A stretch of 64,000 nucleotides of DNA, from assembly GCA_030649835.1 (NCBI GenBank), contig JAUSES010000035.1:19590-83589 (forward strand). Reading direction: 5' to 3'. The translations under genes were made by a program, and so were the position numbers. Shown here in pieces: positions 1,097 through 49,198 of this stretch; positions within the stretch are counted from its first letter, which is position 1; every line of letters starts with the position of its first letter. This stretch comes from a bacterium (GTDB lineage: Bacteria; Patescibacteriota; Minisyncoccia; Phycocordibacterales; UBA1550). The notes under the pieces are model-generated. The model made no database searches, was not told where the DNA came from, and worked only from the letters and a program-made list of their open reading frames with translations.

Positions 1097-1606
1097 CTAT
1101 CGATTTGGTATTGCTGAACATGTACCAAGGCGCGCGCAATCAGGAATGGAGGAACAAGTAACCCCCGCACAAGCTGGTTTGCTTCCCGGAATTTGCACGG
1201 TGGCACCACCCGCCCCACCAAAAGTACCCGTTACAAAGCTGACCAACCCCCACATGGAGGCCATGACGGCAATACCTACTATCCCCCATATCGCTTGCTC
1301 CTTCATTTTTGCGCGCTCTTCGGCGTCTCCGCTTTTCTGAATAATCCTCAACATATTCCACAAGAAAAATACCACTGCTGAGGCAAAAATAATCACAATC
1401 GCGGGAGTGATGATTGTGCTAATGATATAGTCAACAAATCCCTTAAAATCCATTGCGTTTTGTGGTCCTACGAAGTAGGGGTCTTGTCTTTCGGTCACTA
1501 CGGTTCCGGGAGACATTGGCCCCACAAATGACGGCGACTGCCCATAAGCAAATGAAACAATCGGTGATAAAAGTAGAACAAAAAGTAGAACAGCTTTTTT
1601 TAGCAT
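1097..1606 (-). CDS. TrbC/VirB2-like pilin family protein
   Basis: 169 aa with signal peptide. Core FLWNMLRIIQKSGDAEERAKMKEQAIWGIVGIAVMASMWGLVSF is paralogous to 366..722. Cys-rich C-terminal tail. Confidence 0.6.
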   Translation of the reverse strand: MLKKAVLLFVLLLSPIVSFAYGQSPSFVGPMSPGTVVTERQDPYFVGPQNAMDFKGFVDYIISTIITPAIVIIFASAVVFFLWNMLRIIQKSGDAEERAKMKEQAIWGIVGIAVMASMWGLVSFVTGTFGGAGGATVQIPGSKPACAGVTCSSIPDCARLGTCSAIPNR

Positions 1607-1611
1607 ATGGG

Positions 1612-2178
1612 TTAGTTGGTAATAGTAGATATTGTTGACCCTATTAACTGTGAAAAACCAAGGGCACCGAGCAAAATGAACGCACCTATGAGACTATACA
1701 TAATCGCCTTTTTTGCATTTCCGAGCTCCTCTACATTGCCCTGCGCTTTAATAAACAAAAATCCGGAAATCATAAAGGCGATAACCACAAACGGCATCAG
1801 CACTTTTACCACGGCGTTAATGACGGCTGATGCAAATTCATCGAACGTTTTCGCCTTGATGGGGTTTACTAGTGTGGTCTTTATCTCTGTTGCGGGCGCG
1901 TTGGTATTTGTACCACCACTAGGCGCATTAGTATTTGTACCACCTGAACCACAATATTTATTTGAATAAAATTGCTGATTCTCTGCACCAAGAGTATTCC
2001 AATTGGAAAGAATTTCTATTGGCATTCCTTCACACGCCGAAGTAGCTGCTAGTACAAACATTGTTGGAAAAAACATCATTCCAAGCACCACCGCTCCAAG
2101 TATTTTTTTCATCCGATTAGAGGCTTTTTGAAAAGTAGGTTCTGTGTAGTCAATTGTATCTTTTGTTTTATTTTTCAT
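1612..2178 (-). CDS. TrbC/VirB2-like pilin family protein with internal tandem repeat
   Basis: 188 aa. Same C-terminal architecture. In-frame 24-nt tandem duplication (SGGTNTNAP x2) at about 1885-1935. The CCTCTAACGGG motif sits 19 nt upstream of the start codon. Confidence 0.6.
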   Translation of the reverse strand: MKNKTKDTIDYTEPTFQKASNRMKKILGAVVLGMMFFPTMFVLAATSACEGMPIEILSNWNTLGAENQQFYSNKYCGSGGTNTNAPSGGTNTNAPATEIKTTLVNPIKAKTFDEFASAVINAVVKVLMPFVVIAFMISGFLFIKAQGNVEELGNAKKAIMYSLIGAFILLGALGFSQLIGSTISTITN

Positions 2179-2240
2179 CTTATTATTACTCGTTTAGCCT
2201 CTAACGGGACTAGTATCGATATTATATCTACTTTTAATAA

Positions 2241-2720
2241 TTATTGAAACAGAAACTGCATGAATGTCCGTTGGTCGTCGGACAAAAGCGCAAAAAGCCC
2301 TGTTTTTATAAGGACATACGCGCCGAGCATGATAAAGAAACCAATAGCGATATTTGAGAACGCCTCTTTGGCTTTCGTCCACTCGCCTTCTTTGTCTTGA
2401 TTAATAACCAAACGTGCACCCACAAACATAAAACCAATGGCGGTGAGCGGGACGGCTACCTTGTAGATGAGAAACTTAATGATGTTGTTGGCAAGCTGAA
2501 TGAGGTCGTTAAAATTGCACTCCTCATTGTTTCCAGAAATAATCTTGTCGCCATTAAGATCCTCCCCGCACGGAATCCCAACCTGCGCCACAGCAATAAA
2601 CGGCACTGCAAAAACGACGACTGACAGGATGGTCGCAAGTGTTTTTTGGTTTGTTCTTGTGTATTTCATATTTCGCATTGAATTAGTTTTTCCTTTTTCC
2701 CCATTCCGCATTCCATTCAA
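2241..2720 (-). CDS. TrbC/VirB2-like pilin family protein
   Basis: Paralogous core FLIYKVAVPLTAIGFMFVGARLVINQDKEGEWTKAKEAFSNIAIGFFIMLGAYVLI. The true start may be an internal Met (MKYTR...). Confidence 0.55.
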   Translation of the reverse strand: MNGMRNGEKGKTNSMRNMKYTRTNQKTLATILSVVVFAVPFIAVAQVGIPCGEDLNGDKIISGNNEECNFNDLIQLANNIIKFLIYKVAVPLTAIGFMFVGARLVINQDKEGEWTKAKEAFSNIAIGFFIMLGAYVLIKTGLFALLSDDQRTFMQFLFQ

Positions 2721-4043
2721 TCATTGTGGCTGATACTGCTCTAAAAGCCGTGCAAGGCTACTTTGTGCAGTCAAAACTGCGGACGATGGCTTTACCCGCT
2801 CTGAGGTAATGCTGTCAATCATCGTCATAAAAATATTGCTCGTATCCTCAGGAGACGGGTCCTGCCAAGCACGCGCTATCAATGCTGCGTTATAAAACAC
2901 CGAGGCTACTGCATCAGTCTGCTTAATAGAAACAAGGTCTCGACGCACTGGCGGAAGGCCCGTTATTGATCCAAAACCATCGATGCTATCTTTTTGCGAA
3001 AGAAGCGATACTGCATACAGCGCACCTGTTTTATTCTCGCTTCTATCTGCAATAGCCAGACCGTACATGCGACCAAATGTTATTTTTTTAGATACCGGCG
3101 ATATTTGTGGTATGAGTGAAACATCAAAATTAAGATGCGGATTCTTCAGTTTTATTGAAGAGTATTCGCTCGAAAACCCGAAATAAATCGCGAGGTCCCC
3201 CCGTTCAAACATGATGCGTGAAGGTGAAAGGGAGCGGTTCCATGAATATGAATCCTTGTAGTCTTTTGAGAACTCGGTAAAGAAACGCATGGTCGTAACG
3301 GCGGGGTTTTCTGTATTGGACGGTGCTTCTACAAAGATACCCGCCTTTATTGCGCCATTTGTATTTTGCACAATAGGCACTCCCGCCTGCAAGAGGAGCG
3401 TTGCAATGATTTCTTTTGCATTGGTAACATTTCTATATTCACCAAAAGAAACGAGGCTTCGTGTTATGTTGTTTTTCCCATCACGAATGGTAATTTTTGG
3501 CACAAGATTATAAAATTCTGACCATGTTTTTGGAGGGGCTGTCTCGAGTGCATCGGTAAAAATATCTCGGTTCCAATACATTATGATTGGGTCTATGGTA
3601 AAAGGGAGCGCGGAAATACCACTTGGCCACAAAAACATTTCTCCTTCTTCTATAAATGTACTTTTGAAATCACGCTCGGGAATTGATTCATATGAAATAA
3701 AACTAAGTTTATTTATATTTTTCAATATCTCATCTTGTGAAAGCATTATAATGTCGGGCCCCTGCCCCACGGCGAGTGCCTCTACAAAGTCTCTGCGAAG
3801 TGACGCGGGGTTTTTCTCTACATACTTGATAGTAATGCTTTTATCAGCACTCGTAATAGCGGTAATGAGCCCCTGCATTGGAATAGCAGGAAGATTACCC
3901 CACATGGTCACCACTCCGTAATTTATTTTTTTATCGCCTCCGGGAAGGGGAAGCTTTCCTGAAAAACCCAAAAATCCTAAAAGCAAAAACGCGACAAACA
4001 CTACCATGATCACTATTTGAAAAATTTTGGGTCCTTGAGTCAT
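2721..4043 (-). CDS. extracellular solute-binding protein (ABC transporter family 1, sugar-type), orphan
   Basis: 440 aa. N-terminal membrane anchor, overall SBP_bac_1-like composition. No permease or ATPase genes adjacent. Confidence 0.5.
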   Translation of the reverse strand: MTQGPKIFQIVIMVVFVAFLLLGFLGFSGKLPLPGGDKKINYGVVTMWGNLPAIPMQGLITAITSADKSITIKYVEKNPASLRRDFVEALAVGQGPDIIMLSQDEILKNINKLSFISYESIPERDFKSTFIEEGEMFLWPSGISALPFTIDPIIMYWNRDIFTDALETAPPKTWSEFYNLVPKITIRDGKNNITRSLVSFGEYRNVTNAKEIIATLLLQAGVPIVQNTNGAIKAGIFVEAPSNTENPAVTTMRFFTEFSKDYKDSYSWNRSLSPSRIMFERGDLAIYFGFSSEYSSIKLKNPHLNFDVSLIPQISPVSKKITFGRMYGLAIADRSENKTGALYAVSLLSQKDSIDGFGSITGLPPVRRDLVSIKQTDAVASVFYNAALIARAWQDPSPEDTSNIFMTMIDSITSERVKPSSAVLTAQSSLARLLEQYQPQ

Positions 4044-7984: not shown

Positions 7985-8075
7985 TAATCGTCTTTGCGAG
8001 TAGGTACTCCTACGAAGCAATCCAGAGAGTTGGTAATTAACCCTGGGTTGCTTCGCTTTGCTCGCAAAGACGGAG
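7985..8075. repeat. palindromic intergenic repeat, copy 2
   Basis: Same TIRs and internal stems as copy 1. Directly after the stop of 8125..8919. Confidence 0.6.
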
Positions 8076-8124: not shown

Positions 8125-8919
8125 TTAGTCGGCCCAAACGACGAATGTAAAGACTTTCTGACCGTTGCCGAGATTGCGCTCGTGGAGCGTGGTGCGCCCA
8201 TCGCGAGACTTTCGTATTTCCTTGCCCCATTCTGCTCTATTTTCAGTATCTATGTCATCAGAAACGCGTGATGCCCCCGCGCTTGAAGATGTTCTGCTAA
8301 AAAGTGTAGTAATGGTGTCCAAGTGCGCATAGATAGTTTCAAGCTGAGTGAAGTCGTGCAAGTTTGGATACTGGTTGGTGGACGGATCGTTTGTATAATC
8401 CATGCAGGTGCCAAGATTTGCATTGGTAAAAATCTCATCCTGATGGTCAAGCCCAAAAGTATGTCCAACTTCTTGGCACATTACAAATTGTCTCCAAGCG
8501 GGGGTGTTGTACTTCGCGGTGTTGAAATACGTGTCGTTCAGTTTTACCGTTCCTTGATAAATGTGGTTGCCCGATGCCCACACCGAGGCTATGCCGAGCC
8601 AGCCATTATTTCCATAAGTTTTGTTACAAACCTCCACACGACCGTTTGTCGCTCTACAATTTTTTACATTGCTCTGCCCTGCCACAACTGTAGTGTCGAG
8701 AACTGACGATGCGCTCCACATCGCTGAAGTCGTGGCGAGATGGGTATCCCACACCGATAAAACATTATCCCCTAGTTTAAGCACGAAGGGATTTGCTGTA
8801 CGAGCCCAGTGGTAGCTCCCCCACGCATGGCTTGCTAATGCTATGGTTGCAAATGCCGAAACAGACAGTACTGCGATCGCCCCCACGATTAGTCTTTTTG
8901 TGTAATGTTTTGTATTCAT
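8125..8919 (-). CDS. secreted protein with putative zinc-metallopeptidase-like motif
   Basis: 264 aa. Signal peptide. Motif CQEVGHTFGLDHQDE resembles metzincin HExxHxxGxxH but lacks the first His. CTCTAACGGG abuts the ATG. Confidence 0.4.
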   Translation of the reverse strand: MNTKHYTKRLIVGAIAVLSVSAFATIALASHAWGSYHWARTANPFVLKLGDNVLSVWDTHLATTSAMWSASSVLDTTVVAGQSNVKNCRATNGRVEVCNKTYGNNGWLGIASVWASGNHIYQGTVKLNDTYFNTAKYNTPAWRQFVMCQEVGHTFGLDHQDEIFTNANLGTCMDYTNDPSTNQYPNLHDFTQLETIYAHLDTITTLFSRTSSSAGASRVSDDIDTENRAEWGKEIRKSRDGRTTLHERNLGNGQKVFTFVVWAD

Positions 8920-8931
8920 CCCGTTAGAGGT
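8920..8931 (-). promoter_or_regulatory. start-codon-adjacent motif (RNA sense CCUACCUCUAACGGG-AUG), 3' half of a long-range inverted repeat
   Basis: Perfect 12-nt reverse complement of 9087-9098. Directly abuts the ATG of 8125..8919. Confidence 0.5.
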
Positions 8932-9086
8932 AGGAAATTATTAAAAATTTCCGTAGCTAATTATTATCCAATAAATATAAAGTGTCTTTTGTTACGATAT
9001 CCCGCGAGCATAGTCTAACAAACGGTGCCCCACCCGCCATCACTTGGGCACAACTATTTGCTGTGTTCTGGCGAAAGTGGGCGGGA

Positions 9087-9098
9087 ACCTCTAACGGG
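9087..9098 (-). promoter_or_regulatory. distal partner of the start-codon motif (ACCTCTAACGGG)
   Basis: Complementary to 8920-8931. Shares CTCTAACGGGATTCAT with the copy at 49135-49150. Confidence 0.5.
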
Positions 9099-9204
9099 AT
9101 TCATGTTTTATATTGTATACCTGCTGTTATGAATTGCAAGAGTTTTTTGAACAAGGTCTGAATGGCTCTAAAAATGCTCTGCAGAAAAGACAGTATTCCA
9201 CGGC

Positions 9205-9345
9205 TCTGTCTTTGCGAGCGGAGCGAAGCAACCCAGAGAATGTGTGATAAATCCTGGAGATAGCGTCCGAGACGTGAATTTACTAATTCAGCTTCGTCGT
9301 TGAATTAGCAAATTCACTTCCTGGGAGCTCCTCGCAAAGACACTA
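9205..9345. repeat. palindromic intergenic repeat, copy 3 (longer variant with extra internal 19-bp stem)
   Basis: Same outer TIR GTCTTTGCGAG/CTCGCAAAGAC and the cgaagcaacccagag arm. Contains an extra hairpin gtgaatttactaattcagc/gttgaattagcaaattcac. Confidence 0.55.
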
Positions 9346-9369
9346 TTTTCTACAGAGCATTCTAAAAAC

Positions 9370-11307
9370 CTATTTCAGCAACTCATTCAGCTGATTCTGT
9401 TTGCCGTTTGCTATCAAAATCTGTGAGTAGAACTTTTTTGCCTCTGGGTATTCTGGCGCAAGCTCATAGGCGCGCTTAAATGCCATTTCTGAGTTTGCCA
9501 AATCTTTCTTATTATAATATGCGCTCCCAAGCTCAAAAAGTATCGTTTGTTTTTTGGGCGAAAGCTCCGAAGCTTTGTTTAAATATGCGAGCCCTTTGTC
9601 AAAGATACCAACGCGAGAGAAAAAGCTTCCTGCAAAAACTTGATAACGCGCGTCATTAGGAAGCTCTCGTGCCTGCTTTTCAAGCTCTTCTCCTGCAAGG
9701 ATGAGAAATTGTTGCTGTATCTCTGATATCCCTTTAGATGAATCAAATCCATTCATTGCAAGCTGACCGAGCTGCTCGCGCGCTTCAGAGGTTCCAAAAG
9801 AACCATATGCGATAGTTTCTTTAAAAAGCGCAAGGTTATGTGCCGGACCCTCAGACCCACGCTCAGACATGGCGCGAATAAGCGTTGTATTTTGCTTGAA
9901 GCCGTTGTGGTTTACAAAATAGACAAGAACAATCGCAAGAATGATTGCGCCACCCGAAACCATGAAAGTGAGGTCTTCTCCATCGGTTTTTCTGCCTTCA
10001 ACCTTTTGTCTTTCATCCCCCGTCTCCCTGTGACTAATACTCACAATGTATGCAAGTATTGTCCCAAAATAAATAAGTGAGGTGAGGTTATCAAACACGA
10101 AAAGATTTTGGAAAAAATATCCGCCCAAAAGCCCCGTCAAAACACTTTTTTCAACGACGGACAGTTCATCCGCTCGACGCCAAATACAGTACATTGCGCA
10201 CGCAAATAGTGAGATATACGCAAGCAGTGCGGGAAGTCCACCGGCGATTAGCCAATCAAAGAATACATTGTGTGCGCGGTCGAACCATTGCTCTTGTCCA
10301 TACATCTTTGGGTCATAGTATTTATTAAATACATAATTAAAATTTTCCATTCCCCAGCCAAGCACAGGACGCTCTTTGAACCCTTGGTATGCCATATTCC
10401 AAACCATAAAGCGCGACTTGGTAGTCGTCTCGGTAAGGGATATTGATCCAAACCGCGAAAGTACTGGACTATCTTTTACAAACTGTGCATCGCGCATCGC
10501 TATAAATCCGCCGACAAATAAAATAACGACGGCAAGAATTCCTATTGCGCTCCCTCGTACCACTTTTCTCTCACGCTCAAATATTGCTACCAAAAGTGTT
10601 GCAAGTCCTATTCCTGCAATAAGCCCGAGCATCGCTCCACGCGTAGCGGTGTGATAGAGCACAAATGTTTGCAAGAGGACGATAGAGCCATATATTGCCA
10701 CACGCACCCTTTCCCCTATCGTAGTGAAGCTTTCGCGCACAAGGAAAAACCCTGCAAGGAAAACATTAAAAAGTGCATAGGTCCCCATGTACGCCGCGTT
10801 GCCCAGGGTGCCGTTCACCCGCACACCGTCCTGTACAATGGTCAAATCTCCCGCCCATTGAAGCACTGCGTAAATTGCCATACACACACCTACCGCAAGA
10901 TGAAAATTTAAATACGGTCGCCAGAGGTCGCGCACCGTGAGGACCGTAGATGCTACAATAAAATATGCAAAGAGGTGGAAGTATGTTACGACCCCTTCCA
11001 TGCGCTCAAAGTTTGACCAAAAGCTCTTTGTGGGGTTTTCACCAAAAATTGCTGAGAGTGTAATGATACCGAGAAACGCCACAAAGGCGCCGAGGAGCCA
11101 TGTTTTCTTTAGGCGATATGCGGGGTCAATGAACGCAAGAACAATCCACGCAGAAAACATTATCTCTACCACAAGGCGAAACGCAAAGTTTTTTCCTACA
11201 ATAAACGGGAAAAATGTGTTTTGTGACAAAACAATAAACGGAATAAATGGCACCGCCACAAACCCCGCCAAAACCACCGCATTCGCCAAAAATTTATGTA
11301 TGTTCAT
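9370..11307 (-). CDS. O-antigen ligase-like (Wzy_C) polytopic membrane protein with C-terminal TPR repeats
   Basis: 645 aa. About 12 TM segments in the N-terminal 430 aa. The soluble C-terminal region carries TPR-like repeats (AYLNKASELSPKKQTILFELGSAYYNKKDLANSEMAFKRAYELAPEY). Confidence 0.6.
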   Translation of the reverse strand: MNIHKFLANAVVLAGFVAVPFIPFIVLSQNTFFPFIVGKNFAFRLVVEIMFSAWIVLAFIDPAYRLKKTWLLGAFVAFLGIITLSAIFGENPTKSFWSNFERMEGVVTYFHLFAYFIVASTVLTVRDLWRPYLNFHLAVGVCMAIYAVLQWAGDLTIVQDGVRVNGTLGNAAYMGTYALFNVFLAGFFLVRESFTTIGERVRVAIYGSIVLLQTFVLYHTATRGAMLGLIAGIGLATLLVAIFERERKVVRGSAIGILAVVILFVGGFIAMRDAQFVKDSPVLSRFGSISLTETTTKSRFMVWNMAYQGFKERPVLGWGMENFNYVFNKYYDPKMYGQEQWFDRAHNVFFDWLIAGGLPALLAYISLFACAMYCIWRRADELSVVEKSVLTGLLGGYFFQNLFVFDNLTSLIYFGTILAYIVSISHRETGDERQKVEGRKTDGEDLTFMVSGGAIILAIVLVYFVNHNGFKQNTTLIRAMSERGSEGPAHNLALFKETIAYGSFGTSEAREQLGQLAMNGFDSSKGISEIQQQFLILAGEELEKQARELPNDARYQVFAGSFFSRVGIFDKGLAYLNKASELSPKKQTILFELGSAYYNKKDLANSEMAFKRAYELAPEYPEAKKFYSQILIANGKQNQLNELLK

Positions 11308-46920: not shown

Positions 46921-47781
46921 CTAACTCTCAAGCCTTGTCTTAATTTTTTCAATATCTCCATATGTTTCCTCTAGTAACTTTATGTCTTTTTTTGAAGAAA
47001 TTAGTAGATCATTATTCTTTGCCTCAAAACTGCGGAGGAGGTTGCCTCCTAATTTGTCTCCCACGACACGTTCATATTCCTCGCGAAAGGCTGCGAAGTC
47101 CTTTATAAAACAGTGTCCCCCTGCGCCCCGTCCTGTTTTGTGTACGGGGTTCATGTGCGACGACCCAATGCGCGCATCGCTTGCAACTCCGTCACGCACC
47201 GCTTCCCATGAGCCTCCTTCTTTTAGTGCGAGATCATAAAGCATATTCATAAACACAACCTTCGTGTAAAGAAACGCGTTTGCGCCGTACTTAATGAGCT
47301 CAGACTCGCGTGCGGTACAAATGTTTTCATAGGGTGCGCGGGGTAATAGTTCCATCACTTGGTCTGCAGCACGTCTGTACCTTTCGTTAAAAAATGGAAC
47401 ACCAATAATATTTCGAGAAGGATTCGCCACATCGTGAACTACTGTCGCCTCAACTAAAAACTCTGGAGAATGAAGAACAACTATATTTGGATTCTCCTTT
47501 TGGATCGACTCCGTCGTCCCTGGAAGAATCGTTGATTTGATCACTGCAGTTTTCCCTGCTCCGACAAGCGAGACCACCATGCGCACAATTGAATCATCAA
47601 ACCCCTGTGTCGTTGTTGGAGTTGGTACAGCAATAAATACCACGTCACACAGAGCAATAGTTTCCTTGTTTAAATCATACGGTTCTTCCTTCGCATAACG
47701 CACCACTTCATAGCCACGCTCTTCAAAATTGTCCGCATAATTTTTACCAATCCACCCTTGTCCGATAAATCCAATTTTCAT
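46921..47781 (-). CDS. nucleotide-sugar dehydrogenase (UDP-glucose/GDP-mannose dehydrogenase family), lacking the C-terminal UDP-binding domain
   Basis: KIGFIGQGWIGKNY, VFIAVPTP, IKSTILPGTT, and catalytic-Cys motif GGHCFIKD. Start placed at MKIGF (47781) where CTCTAATGGG abuts the ATG. The ORF-track start is 47868. Confidence 0.5.
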   Translation of the reverse strand: MKIGFIGQGWIGKNYADNFEERGYEVVRYAKEEPYDLNKETIALCDVVFIAVPTPTTTQGFDDSIVRMVVSLVGAGKTAVIKSTILPGTTESIQKENPNIVVLHSPEFLVEATVVHDVANPSRNIIGVPFFNERYRRAADQVMELLPRAPYENICTARESELIKYGANAFLYTKVVFMNMLYDLALKEGGSWEAVRDGVASDARIGSSHMNPVHKTGRGAGGHCFIKDFAAFREEYERVVGDKLGGNLLRSFEAKNNDLLISSKKDIKLLEETYGDIEKIKTRLES

Positions 47782-47793
47782 CCCATTAGAGGT
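47782..47793 (-). promoter_or_regulatory. start-codon-adjacent motif (variant CCUACCUCUAAUGGG-AUG)
   Basis: Complementary to 47882-47893 with one G·U wobble, which works only in minus-sense RNA. Confidence 0.45.
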
Positions 47794-47881
47794 AGGGCGC
47801 GACGAATCTTTGTCCATAGAATTATCTGTAGAGCTTTTAGTTATTTTATTCTTCGTGATTTTTGTCATATTTGCAGTCGTG

Positions 47882-47893
47882 ACCTCTAACGGG
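47882..47893 (-). promoter_or_regulatory. distal partner motif ACCTCTAACGGG
   Basis: 88 nt upstream (minus sense) of its partner. Same spacing as the pair near 49 kb. Confidence 0.45.
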
Positions 47894-47906
47894 ACACGTA
47901 ATTTCT

Positions 47907-49034
47907 CTATATTAGCAGGAAACTGGTGTCTCTGCGAATGTGGTCATCCCATGACTTTTTATATGTAGCAAGGTATTCTTCCTTGCTGGATAATACTGGT
48001 ATTTTTACTGTCAATCTTACATTATTAGAGATCAGGCTCTCCATGGCACGAACAAGCGCCTGAGAGTCGCCTACGGGCACTATAAGGCCATTTTCGTTGT
48101 CTTTTACTACTTCCCCTGCACAACCCACATCAGTCATTATGACAGGGCATCCCGCAGAAAGCGCCTCCACAACCGTCATGCCATATCCCTCGTAATTTGA
48201 AGTAAGGAGAAAAATATCAGCAGAGCGATAATATGGTGAAAGGTCCTTCTGCCAACTCTCAAATAGAACGTTCTTCTCAAGGCTGTATTCTCTTACTAAA
48301 CTTTTCAGGTGCGTTTCCTCTGTGCCCTCCCCCACAATGACAAGTCCTGCCTGTGGATATTTTTTGATCACCGCGCGCATAGCATCAAGTGCCATGTCAA
48401 TATTTTTTTCTTGCGCAAGTCGCGAGGCAACGAGAATGACTTTGTTGAACTGAGGATATTTTTTCCTTAAATCGGGTTCGGAGGCATGGTTAGTATTTTC
48501 GATGTTACTAGTAATCGGAAGCACCGTTATTGATGTATTCTTTTTTACTATACTTTCAATTGATTTTTTAATGCGCATTGAAACAACACGAATTGCGTGA
48601 GCTCGGGGAATCAAAAATTTTGCTAGCATCACTCGGATACGATTTACCATTGATTCATTTCTAAAATACGGACTCATCACATCTGTGTGAATTTGCAGAT
48701 GTAAGTGCGATTTAAATATGCGAGCAATAATGTATCCTGCAAATCCAGCCTCAAATGGATCTTGCGTTGTCACGACATCGATCATCACGCCACGACGCCT
48801 CAGTTTAAGCGCAAATAAAATAGCAGAAGCAATATAAAAAAATTTACTAATGGAGTTGGTCGGGTAGAGAAAAATATTTGGCTCAATTACCTCATCGTGA
48901 AGTCCAAGACTTTTTTTTGCGAACACAATGACATGGAGCTCTTCTATAAGTCCTCCATACTCAAGAAGCCGCGATCGCACAGCGCTCCCTTTTTCAAAAA
49001 CCATGCGGTCCGTTGAGATAGATAAAACCTTCAT
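47907..49034 (-). CDS. GT4 glycosyltransferase
   Basis: EGYGMTVVEALSAGCPVIMTDVG. CTCTAACGGG abuts the ATG. Confidence 0.7.
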   Translation of the reverse strand: MKVLSISTDRMVFEKGSAVRSRLLEYGGLIEELHVIVFAKKSLGLHDEVIEPNIFLYPTNSISKFFYIASAILFALKLRRRGVMIDVVTTQDPFEAGFAGYIIARIFKSHLHLQIHTDVMSPYFRNESMVNRIRVMLAKFLIPRAHAIRVVSMRIKKSIESIVKKNTSITVLPITSNIENTNHASEPDLRKKYPQFNKVILVASRLAQEKNIDMALDAMRAVIKKYPQAGLVIVGEGTEETHLKSLVREYSLEKNVLFESWQKDLSPYYRSADIFLLTSNYEGYGMTVVEALSAGCPVIMTDVGCAGEVVKDNENGLIVPVGDSQALVRAMESLISNNVRLTVKIPVLSSKEEYLATYKKSWDDHIRRDTSFLLI

Positions 49035-49046
49035 CCCGTTAGAGAC
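49035..49046 (-). promoter_or_regulatory. start-codon-adjacent motif (CCUGUCUCUAACGGG-AUG)
   Basis: Perfect 12-nt complement of 49135-49146. Carries compensatory changes relative to the 8.9-kb pair. Confidence 0.5.
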
Positions 49047-49134
49047 AGGAGATAAAATCTCCGTGTCTAATTACATTAAACTGCCAATAATATTTATTCA
49101 ACATATGTTTATATTAACAAAAAATAACATGAGG

Positions 49135-49146
49135 GTCTCTAACGGG
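49135..49146 (-). promoter_or_regulatory. distal partner motif GTCTCTAACGGG, nested in a local hairpin ATGAGGG...CCCTCAT
   Basis: Lies in the divergent intergenic region between 47907..49034 and 49199..50344. Confidence 0.5.
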
Positions 49147-49198
49147 ATTCATACCCCTCATAGTACCACAAATAGAGCTGTGATATACTGGGGAAATT

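Follow-up and report, generated by a model that had tools for sequence, protein, structure and literature searches.

What does it mean when one short motif abuts the start codons of several unrelated genes and recurs in inverted form further upstream on the same strand? The question is raised by the gene at 8125..8919, on the minus strand of a 64,000-nt stretch of bacterial DNA (contig JAUSES010000035.1, positions 19,590 to 83,589; hereafter the window), where such a motif ends on the first letter of the ATG. A first-pass annotation, made from the letters alone, had taken the motif pairs for the arms of a 5' untranslated region (5'-UTR) hairpin that hides the start codon, or for a regulator's binding site. 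We consider it highly likely that the pairs are instead the ends of a family of non-autonomous elements, resembling MITEs (miniature inverted-repeat transposable elements), that insert into the start codons of unrelated genes of Patescibacteria (the candidate phyla radiation, CPR) and rebuild the ATG; a mechanism that goes with this reading is proposed below.

The count of seven motif copies held up: the 10-mer, allowing at most one mismatch, occurs 7 times in the window, compared with a mean of 2.0 in 100 dinucleotide-preserving shuffles, none of which reached 7. A relaxed scan for paired arms returned exactly four elements (20 shuffled windows gave 0–2 strand hits). All four lie on the minus strand, with the distal arm TCCCGTTAGAG and the proximal arm CTCTAAYGGGA, and the true ATG takes its A from the end of the proximal arm. 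The three arm pairs described initially are thus real, but the true number is four; the pair at 2.2 kb, found by an inverted-repeat search, had been missed. The motif copy at 2199–2208, previously assigned to a start at 2178, is the distal arm of this element, and the ATG at 2178 lies inside it. The element does abut a start, at 2112: its proximal arm CTCTAATCGG (2113–2122) runs directly into the ATG at 2112–2110, which opens MKKILGAVVLGMMFF, the signal-peptide-like N-terminus of a T4SS_pilin protein. The 14-nt arms of this copy (2196–2209 and 2112–2125, 70 nt apart) are 86% complementary, with one mismatch and one wobble. The suggestion that the gene called at 46921..47868 starts at 47781 proved sound: the Pfam Rossmann domain is matched only from residue 31 of the long open reading frame (ORF) onward, MKIGFIGQGWIGK follows the arm, and the ortholog in contig L121 has an identical layout.

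Comparison of filled and empty sites provides direct evidence for insertion. Contig L121 is syntenic with the window over 46.9–50.3 kb and, at the position of the 49-kb copy, carries the same promoter region with a single ATGAA, an exact empty site. The window is exactly 118 nt longer there, which corresponds to the 114-nt element plus TGAA. This copy has a 14-nt perfect inverted repeat with 88 nt between the arms and is 94% identical over 120 nt to a copy in L055, a contig of another genome; the flanks do not align, and the L055 copy precedes a nucleotidyltransferase gene, different from the GT4 gene of the window. The 47.8-kb copy (arms 47882–47894 and 47781–47793, 13 nt with one G·U, 88 nt between them) is present at the same site in L121 with 89% identity, and the L121 proximal arm has a second wobble. 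Its distal flank is ACGTG (47895–47899), without flank duplication. It is an older insertion; the comparison with L121 is uninformative as to any extra constraint on it, the 89% identity being the same as that of the flanking DNA.

The copy at 8.9 kb has a 14-nt perfect inverted repeat, including the flanking A/T, and 155 nt between its arms. The proximal arm ends at position 8919, whose A opens the real ATG, and homologues span 100% of the query from this codon; the gene belongs to a very widespread and well conserved Parcubacteria family. Four orthologous loci (six contigs, L243–L248, two of them syntenic) have no element. The element-free orthologs start 6–7 nt after TATAAT or TACAAT, with the same ATGAA directly after the −10 box, a spacing that makes them look leaderless, and in the window the TACAAT box ends 7 nt before the old ATG. 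The unusual length of this copy comes from an additional hairpin at 9028..9085, which may be a nested remnant; no similar sequence was found elsewhere in the loci compared.

Beyond the window, genomes were scanned for both 11-nt arms, perfect and 66–96 nt apart, a pattern expected about 4 times by chance in the species-representative collection. At least 120 loci were found there, nearly all in Patescibacteria. Genomes and metagenomes together, the latter scanned with a one-base variant, yielded at least 240 loci, again almost all from Patescibacteria. The family counts used below (126, 92, 136, 157 and 254 copies) are counts among the matches listed, and so are the host lineages, namely Saccharibacteria and many Paceibacteria/Parcubacteria. 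No element copy was present in the viral contigs scanned. The ends consist of an invariant 11-nt inverted repeat, TCCCGTTAGAG ... CTCTAACGGGA, plus two covarying base pairs, in more than 250 copies; most elements are 90–120 nt long (range 88–181 nt), and they contain no ORF. Identical 11-nt ends also occur in metagenome-assembled genomes labelled Elusimicrobia, WOR-3, Omnitrophota and Nitrospirota (L008, L017, L071, L088, L094 and L101). The copies in genomes labelled as non-Patescibacteria mostly have TTTA or TAAA flank repeats and do not lie at gene starts; either genuine spread or misbinning could account for them.

In 61 of 92 copies, the same 4 nt stand at both ends (TGAA in 49, TGGA in 6, then TGAG, TGTA, TGCC and TGAT). 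An A precedes the upstream flank copy in 58 of these 61, which gives ATGNN on both sides, mostly ATGAA. Copies away from genes have the matched flanks TTTA, TAAA, TCAA and TTGA. These flanks indicate that the insertion target is TNNA, duplicated over 4 nt and most often TGAA. Tandem copies with one flank copy in common occur, as do nested copies; a mini variant of 50 nt, TCCCGTTAGAAGC..GCTTCTAACGGGA, sits within the loop of a bigger copy's hairpin (L055 435–484 and L204 1352–1401; also L018, L033 and L076). With terminal inverted repeats, a duplication of fixed length, small ORF-less dispersed copies, and filled versus empty sites all found, the family is a MITE in kind. What is new is the rebuilt start codon, the fixed orientation, the spread over a superphylum and a link to tRNA-Thr.

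In 93 of 126 copies (~74%), the terminal A and the flanking TG open an ORF of at least 60 aa. The target in about three-quarters of copies is an A|TGAA start, where the terminal A of the element and the duplicated TG rebuild the ATG and leave the ORF intact, and the old ATGAA is retained ~115 nt upstream, beside the old promoter. Because the window contains ~52 intergenic TGAA/TTCA sites versus 23 ATGAA starts, and yet nearly all TGAA-flanked copies sit at starts, the association with start codons is stronger than target availability predicts.

The predicted folds of all four leaders in the window are closed by the arm stem, with minimum free energies (MFEs) of −67.1, −29.1, −40.1 and −17.8 kcal/mol and z scores from −5.6 to −2.3. 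This part of the first-pass annotation stands: both arms lie on one transcript strand, and the folding predicts that they pair with each other and occlude the A and U of the real AUG. A dedicated cis-regulatory 5'-UTR hairpin, or a paired operator, that co-controls envelope genes would fit such a stem in all four leaders, the envelope or secreted functions of the four target genes, and the modest sense-RNA bias of the proximal hairpin described below. The proteins directly after 92 elements, however, fall into 148 Pfam families without a theme, none with more than 4 members. The downstream genes include those for RF1/2, SSB, SHMT, Mur ligases, RNase J, RbfA, RecR and glycosyltransferases, and at L249 (411 to ~530) an element lies between rpmC (L29) and rpsQ (S17) in a ribosomal protein operon. 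In that operon the L29 ORF stops at a TAG within the distal arm, and the S17 start placed by the gene caller is an ATG inside the element. As the downstream genes are unrelated and often essential, they share no regulon, and a regulator binding site common to a gene set, the other option raised at first, does not agree with these genes or with orthologs that lack the element. Searches of the window and the type-A loci with Rfam 15, at gathering and relaxed E-value thresholds, matched no family. The element is neither conserved at orthologous leaders nor tied to related functions, whereas the empty sites, duplications, and tandem and nested copies identify the arms as terminal inverted repeats of a mobile insertion; the wobble test considered below also loses significance without one subfamily. 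A dedicated regulatory leader is thus improbable in our view.

Stem pair 12, in 72 distinct copies, is AU in 37, GC in 11, UA in 7 and CG in 3, and stem pair 13 is UA in 37 and CG in 27; each position has at least four pair types. The covariation score of the two pairs is 0.173 versus 0.099 in shuffled data, with 0 of 500 shuffles as high. This covariation fits selection for the hairpin, and subfamily inheritance also contributes. The compensatory changes noticed between the arm pairs of the window are accordingly real and general at the inner bases, but the differences amount to subfamilies of repeat ends. At arm position 5, where a C-to-T change was compared in 98 copies, sense G·U occurs in 41 and sense A·C in 19 (gene side versus far side). 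About 21 of the 41 G·U cases belong to one subfamily, and without it the comparison is ~22–26 versus 19, which is not significant; the argument that wobbles pair only in minus-sense RNA does not hold as a general rule. Overall, the folding models suggest that the arm stem in the mRNA is real and very probably forms.

The element has a strongly preferred orientation relative to the gene. In 48 of 92 copies CCT stands just before the gene-proximal arm, as against a single mirror-image case (48:1). Of 157 copies, 86 have a stable local hairpin next to the proximal arm and 12 have one next to the distal arm (mean MFE −6.2 versus −2.2 kcal/mol; Wilcoxon p = 1e-17); in 23 further copies the arm stem is extended instead, with a 4-nt bulge on the gene side. 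Since both ends finish in A and would rebuild ATG equally, something other than ATG rebuilding selects the orientation. An internal outward promoter was considered as the cause and rejected: −10-like hexamers and full promoter-like sites are equally frequent on both strands (19 sense and 21 antisense promoter-like sites inside 92 elements). The single orientation, the lack of a strand-specific promoter inside and the position of the promoter outside the repeats likewise speak against an invertible DNA switch (inverton), in which a recombinase flips a promoter between the inverted repeats. Repeats ~100 nt apart before surface-related genes of the window would be expected of such a switch, but the flank duplications and empty sites indicate insertion, and we give the idea almost no credence.

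Folding of the proximal hairpin is biased toward the sense RNA. The sense-minus-antisense difference is −0.61 kcal/mol, versus −0.12 kcal/mol in composition-matched shuffles (p = 0.008, or p = 0.018 after similar copies were collapsed), and there are 76 G·U pairs in the sense folds compared with 32 in the antisense folds. These predicted folds provide modest evidence for selection on the mRNA.

Most genes of the window have no Shine-Dalgarno (SD) sequence, and several have a TATAAT-like box 6–9 nt before the ATG; leaderless or non-SD initiation appears to be the mode on which this organism depends. An affiliation with Paceibacteria/Parcubacteria is indicated by the T4SS_pilin genes and the homologues. 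SD-like motifs occur upstream of the old ATG at 4 of 58 loci, and a leaderless layout is suggested for many of the host genes. Across the family, −10-like hexamers peak 6–9 nt ahead of a reference nucleotide placed 5 nt upstream of the distal arm, with 37 hits in 79 copies of the target-site duplication (TSD) class and 18 in 24 of the ACYTG class, compared with ~1–4 per position elsewhere. It is therefore probable that 5 nt precede the stem in many mRNAs that carry the element. The idea that transcripts contain both arms agrees with −10 boxes upstream of the distal arm, which make it probable that both are included. Start-codon accessibility and leader length limit leaderless initiation, according to a published account (PMC8459731). 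Because leaderless initiation depends on an accessible start, inhibition is to be expected from a 13-bp stem whose CCCG/CGGG clamp lies at the AUG, unless something opens or removes that stem.

An NTG codon 3–6 nt before the distal arm is kept in 120 of 136 gene-abutting copies, and upstream ORFs (uORFs) from the old ATG run for 6–39 codons with stops anywhere. One might imagine a ribosome hand-over, with loading on the old 5'-terminal AUGAA followed by a shunt or bypass across the stem to the identical AUGAA. Identical 5-nt take-off and landing sequences at both feet of the stem (58 of 92 copies), an old AUG at the probable transcript 5' end and the short uORFs are consistent with it. The sequence identity is explained by target duplication alone, however; a start-type codon upstream is missing from 16 of 136 copies, members of the ACYTG class lack a matching site, and the uORFs show no fixed stop. 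A gap of 95–180 nt is also, to our knowledge, far beyond known bypasses. We regard a hand-over as very improbable.

A further observation concerns tRNA genes. In 6 of 254 copies, the arms flank a tRNA gene exactly, and ARAGORN identified it as tRNA-Thr in every case, with the anticodons UGU, GGU and CGU; no other tRNA type was found by ARAGORN between the arms of the 254 copies. The arms add ten base pairs to the acceptor stem, with a 10-nt leader, G1..C72, U73 and a 9-nt trailer. At L053 (~2700–2900, minus strand), a tRNA-Leu(GAG) gene is split between its variable arm and its T stem by the tRNA-Thr block together with 14 nt more, and deletion of 105 nt restores a canonical 88-nt tRNA-Leu. 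An ORF with two LAGLIDADG-like motifs, recognized by eye, lies just downstream of the interrupted gene. Deleting the block failed to restore a host tRNA in L117, L135, L146 and L240, and no group I intron was detected at the arm-flanked tRNA-Thr loci. The tRNA-Thr flanks and the interrupted tRNA-Leu suggest an unusual organization of tRNA genes. Descent of the element from tRNA-Thr was considered as well; an alignment of type-A copies gave no convincing similarity beyond the arms, and it remains a lead.

To mature, an arm-flanked tRNA-Thr must be cleaved at the boundaries of the arms, and a part for the helix in RNA processing thus stays in play. The arms might then belong to a host RNA-processing signal that also spreads, in which the arm helix is cut by RNase III or by tRNA-Thr-maturing enzymes, the interior is excised and the ORF is released with a leader of ~8–13 nt, as a bacterial counterpart of tRNA punctuation or of the rRNA intervening sequences that RNase III removes. 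This alternative is compatible with mobility and differs in calling the helix functional rather than incidental. Besides the six tRNA-Thr cases with three anticodons, it would accommodate the hairpin stacked on the arm stem (~20–22 bp, its bulge or junction in every case facing the gene), the strict sense orientation, the sense-RNA bias of the hairpin and the tolerance of copies at essential genes. Ordinary elements, on the other hand, contain no tRNA by ARAGORN and no sub-threshold hit to the Rfam tRNA model and lack convincing tRNA-Thr homology beyond the arms; the old copies at 2.2 kb and 47.8 kb have weakened rather than conserved stems, and we know of no requirement of RNase III for an 11-bp sequence. 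A processing signal is a tentative alternative, which we would not favor at present.

Table 1 Coordinates of the window elements, their parts and the arm-flanked tRNA-Thr genes
Feature	Position	Strand	Remarks
Element at 8.9 kb, 181 nt	8919..9099	minus	Arms 9087–9099 (distal) and 8919–8931 (proximal)
Old start codon copy ATGAA, 8.9 kb	9100..9104	minus	TGAA 9100–9103, distal target-duplication copy
Rebuilt start ATGAA of gene 8125..8919	8915..8919	minus	A from the element; TGAA 8915–8918, proximal duplication
Promoter-like sequence, 8.9 kb	9112..9139	minus	TTGCAA 9134–9139, 16-nt spacer, TACAAT 9112–9117; leaderless layout
Local hairpin GGAAATTTTTAATAATTTCC, 8.9 kb	8933..8952	minus	1 nt from the proximal arm; feature that defines element orientation
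Extra GC-rich hairpin inside the 8.9-kb copy	9028..9085	minus	Source of the unusual length
Element before GT4 gene 47907..49034, 114 nt	49034..49147	minus	Arms 49135–49147 and 49034–49046
Local hairpin, 49-kb copy	49048–49062	minus	
TGAA duplication copies, 49-kb copy	49148–49151, 49030–49033	minus	
Old ATG, 49-kb copy	49150–49152	minus	−10 TACTAT 49160–49165
Element between GT4 stop and UDP-glucose dehydrogenase start, 114 nt	47781..47894	minus	True start 47781–47779
Degenerate element before the true T4SS-pilin start, 98 nt	2112..2209	minus	Start 2112–2110
−10 TATAAT, 2.2-kb copy	2221–2226	minus	
Arm-flanked tRNA-Thr	L053 2731–2821		
Arm-flanked tRNA-Thr	L117 1158–1248		
Arm-flanked tRNA-Thr	L146 1469–1560		
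Arm-flanked tRNA-Thr	L135 2241–2332		
Arm-flanked tRNA-Thr	L240 10750–10841		Truncated copy at 10670

Based on the structural and positional data, we propose a plausible mechanism by which insertions into start codons could persist. The transcript would start ~5 nt before the distal arm, and the arms would pair in the mRNA to form a 13-bp GC-clamped stem with the real AUG at its 3' foot. Copies would survive mainly at start codons, as elsewhere they would disrupt genes or be deleted from streamlined genomes; at start codons, imprecise loss of the element would be impossible. Only the orientation with the GC hairpin beside the gene would be compatible with expression. Expression itself would most likely be regained by one of two routes. 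The distal arm could be melted by ribosomes that load at the retained start codon near the 5' end; alternatively, an RNase specific for double strands or for structure could cut the ~20-bp stacked helix, so that a short leader is left free. The RNase route would also account for the orientation rule, given that the bulge or junction invariably faces the gene. In its fullest form, the proposal describes a self-neutralizing insertion built for leaderless genes, which would enter at the first nucleotides transcribed and retain the old 5'-terminal start codon, whose arm helix clamps the mRNA 5' end to the rebuilt AUG and whose host gene recovers expression through tRNA-Thr-type processing, with release of a near-leaderless mRNA, or through ribosome passage across the stem. 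We consider this form speculative and on balance unlikely. If true, it would represent a new way for a transposon to occupy essential genes and an experimental handle on SD-less translation start in Patescibacteria.

A number of points weigh against a MITE-like family that targets start codons. No autonomous copy or cognate transposase was found in the ~1.7 Mb of loci searched, and no arm pair in them encloses an ORF. Identical 11-nt ends across phylum-level lineages, with few and dissimilar copies per genome, are unusual for a MITE burst. The perfect-arm pattern may over-sample young or selected copies and so inflate the start-codon fraction of 74%. Thirty-one of the 92 copies have no matching flanks, and in one subfamily the duplication is replaced by AC[T/C/G]TG just ahead of the distal arm. 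No sense-specific internal promoter was found that would account for the orientation bias. The uORFs that run into the distal arm show no frame preference for a stop at its TAG (8/8/2). Finally, arms that flank bona fide tRNA-Thr genes hint at an RNA-processing role for the helix itself. Among candidates for an autonomous element, the long-range arm pairs in the loci all turned out to be degenerate single copies.

The AC[T/C/G]TG subfamily comprises L049, L055, L063, L079, L086, L123, L127 and ~20 more, and is represented in the window by ACGTG at 47895–47899. Its members nearly always have the proximal arm CTCTAATGGGA, and the A lies at a transcription-start-like distance from a −10 box. NTG-TCC-CGT-TAG would correspond to a three-codon mini-ORF that ends inside the arm. 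Pairing of an ACUUG flank with the start codon region was inspected and set aside, as no covariation with the +4/+5 bases was seen.

Other repeats lie near the elements. A 220-nt long imperfect palindrome at 9155–9375 (RNA MFE −88.9 kcal/mol, z −7.7) separates the stop of the Wzy_C/TPR gene from the promoter of the 8.9-kb gene; it is absent in the syntenic contigs L247 and L248, where the spacer measures 50–70 nt. A second repeat, GTCTTTGCGAGC..AGCGAAGCAAYCCAG, occurs at 9204–9236, 8043–8075 and 1029–1057 of the window and at L057 5459–5490. The copies at 8043–8075 and 1029–1057, just 3' of the genes 8125..8919 and 1097..1606, are followed by the complement CTCTGGATTGCTTCG. The repeat seems to represent a further hairpin family located at the ends of genes.

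About 7% of the window genes (4 of 57) have a mobile hairpin in their start codon. Patescibacteria must therefore initiate beside, or remove, a 13-bp GC-clamped stem in mRNAs without SD sequences, which offers a concrete way into the poorly understood initiation and RNA processing of this group. In practical terms, gene callers misplace starts in these genomes, as at 1612..2178, at 46921..47868 and for S17 in L249. Transposon ends that rebuild the codon they interrupt represent a rare case and could explain how selfish elements persist in very small genomes.

The searchable literature gave no earlier description of the family, by exact sequence or by topic. An integron attC site was rejected as a match, as the R-box order RYYYAAC ... 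GTTRRRY is reversed here on either strand (GTTAGAG ... CTCTAAC); in addition, the copies are scattered, the genes are housekeeping ones, and the inserted unit is the hairpin only, not an ORF plus site. REPINs, linked to a single-copy Y1 (RAYT) gene in the REPIN/RAYT system, are hairpin doublets of ~100 nt with conserved ends and a drifting yet complementary stem, and are long-lived without a nearby transposase copy. The present elements are likewise ~100-nt hairpin doublets with conserved ends whose stem stays complementary despite drift. Unlike REPINs, which are extragenic, lie mostly at gene 3' ends and make no duplication, they have clear duplications and sit at the start codon, and REPIN/RAYT was rejected on these grounds. 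An IS200-type Y1 transposase gene (L249 2788–3213, 141 aa) adjoins the orthologous locus; the arms do not flank it, and no RAYT link was found through it.

Hairpin insertions with identical short flanks, in genes whose intact protein is needed, are also represented by the byp elements of Magnusiomyces mitochondria and the gap of T4 gene 60. The family resembles these in its hairpin, the identical short sequences at both feet and its position in expressed genes. They differ in that byp and the T4 gap are 27–55 nt long, lie inside ORFs and are skipped by ribosomes, whereas the gap in the present family is 95–180 nt and lies at the initiation codon, where bypass is only hypothetical. Host RNases remove inserted helices or tRNAs from transcripts, and the flanking RNA still works, both where RNase III excises the intervening sequences of 23S rRNA and in the tRNA punctuation of mitochondria, whose products are leaderless mRNAs. 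Ordinary copies are not tRNA-like by covariance-model search, in contrast to tRNA punctuation; as in punctuation, the arms do flank real tRNA-Thr genes in some loci, and excision of the element itself would be hypothetical.

Rickettsia palindromic elements (RPE) and the enterobacterial ERIC/RU repeats are tolerated within genes or at their margins, even where the gene is essential. Both are small palindromic mobile repeats (PMC2759123). The family described here is likewise a small palindromic mobile repeat tolerated at essential genes, but, unlike RPE, which is read in frame as an extra peptide, it precedes a rebuilt ATG on the upstream side, contains stops in every frame and adds nothing to the protein. 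The Correia elements (NEMIS) of Neisseria are non-autonomous units of ~100–150 nt with inverted-repeat ends and a short duplication; they are co-transcribed beside genes, and their mRNA hairpin is cut by RNase III, which changes expression. With them our family shares a small non-autonomous format, terminal inverted repeats, a short duplication, a gene-adjacent position and repeat ends that form an mRNA hairpin, here a predicted one. It differs in its end sequences and in duplicating 4 nt of TNNA rather than TA, and, in place of a single genus, it is spread across a superphylum with few copies per genome, inserted in one orientation inside the rebuilt start codons of SD-less genes.

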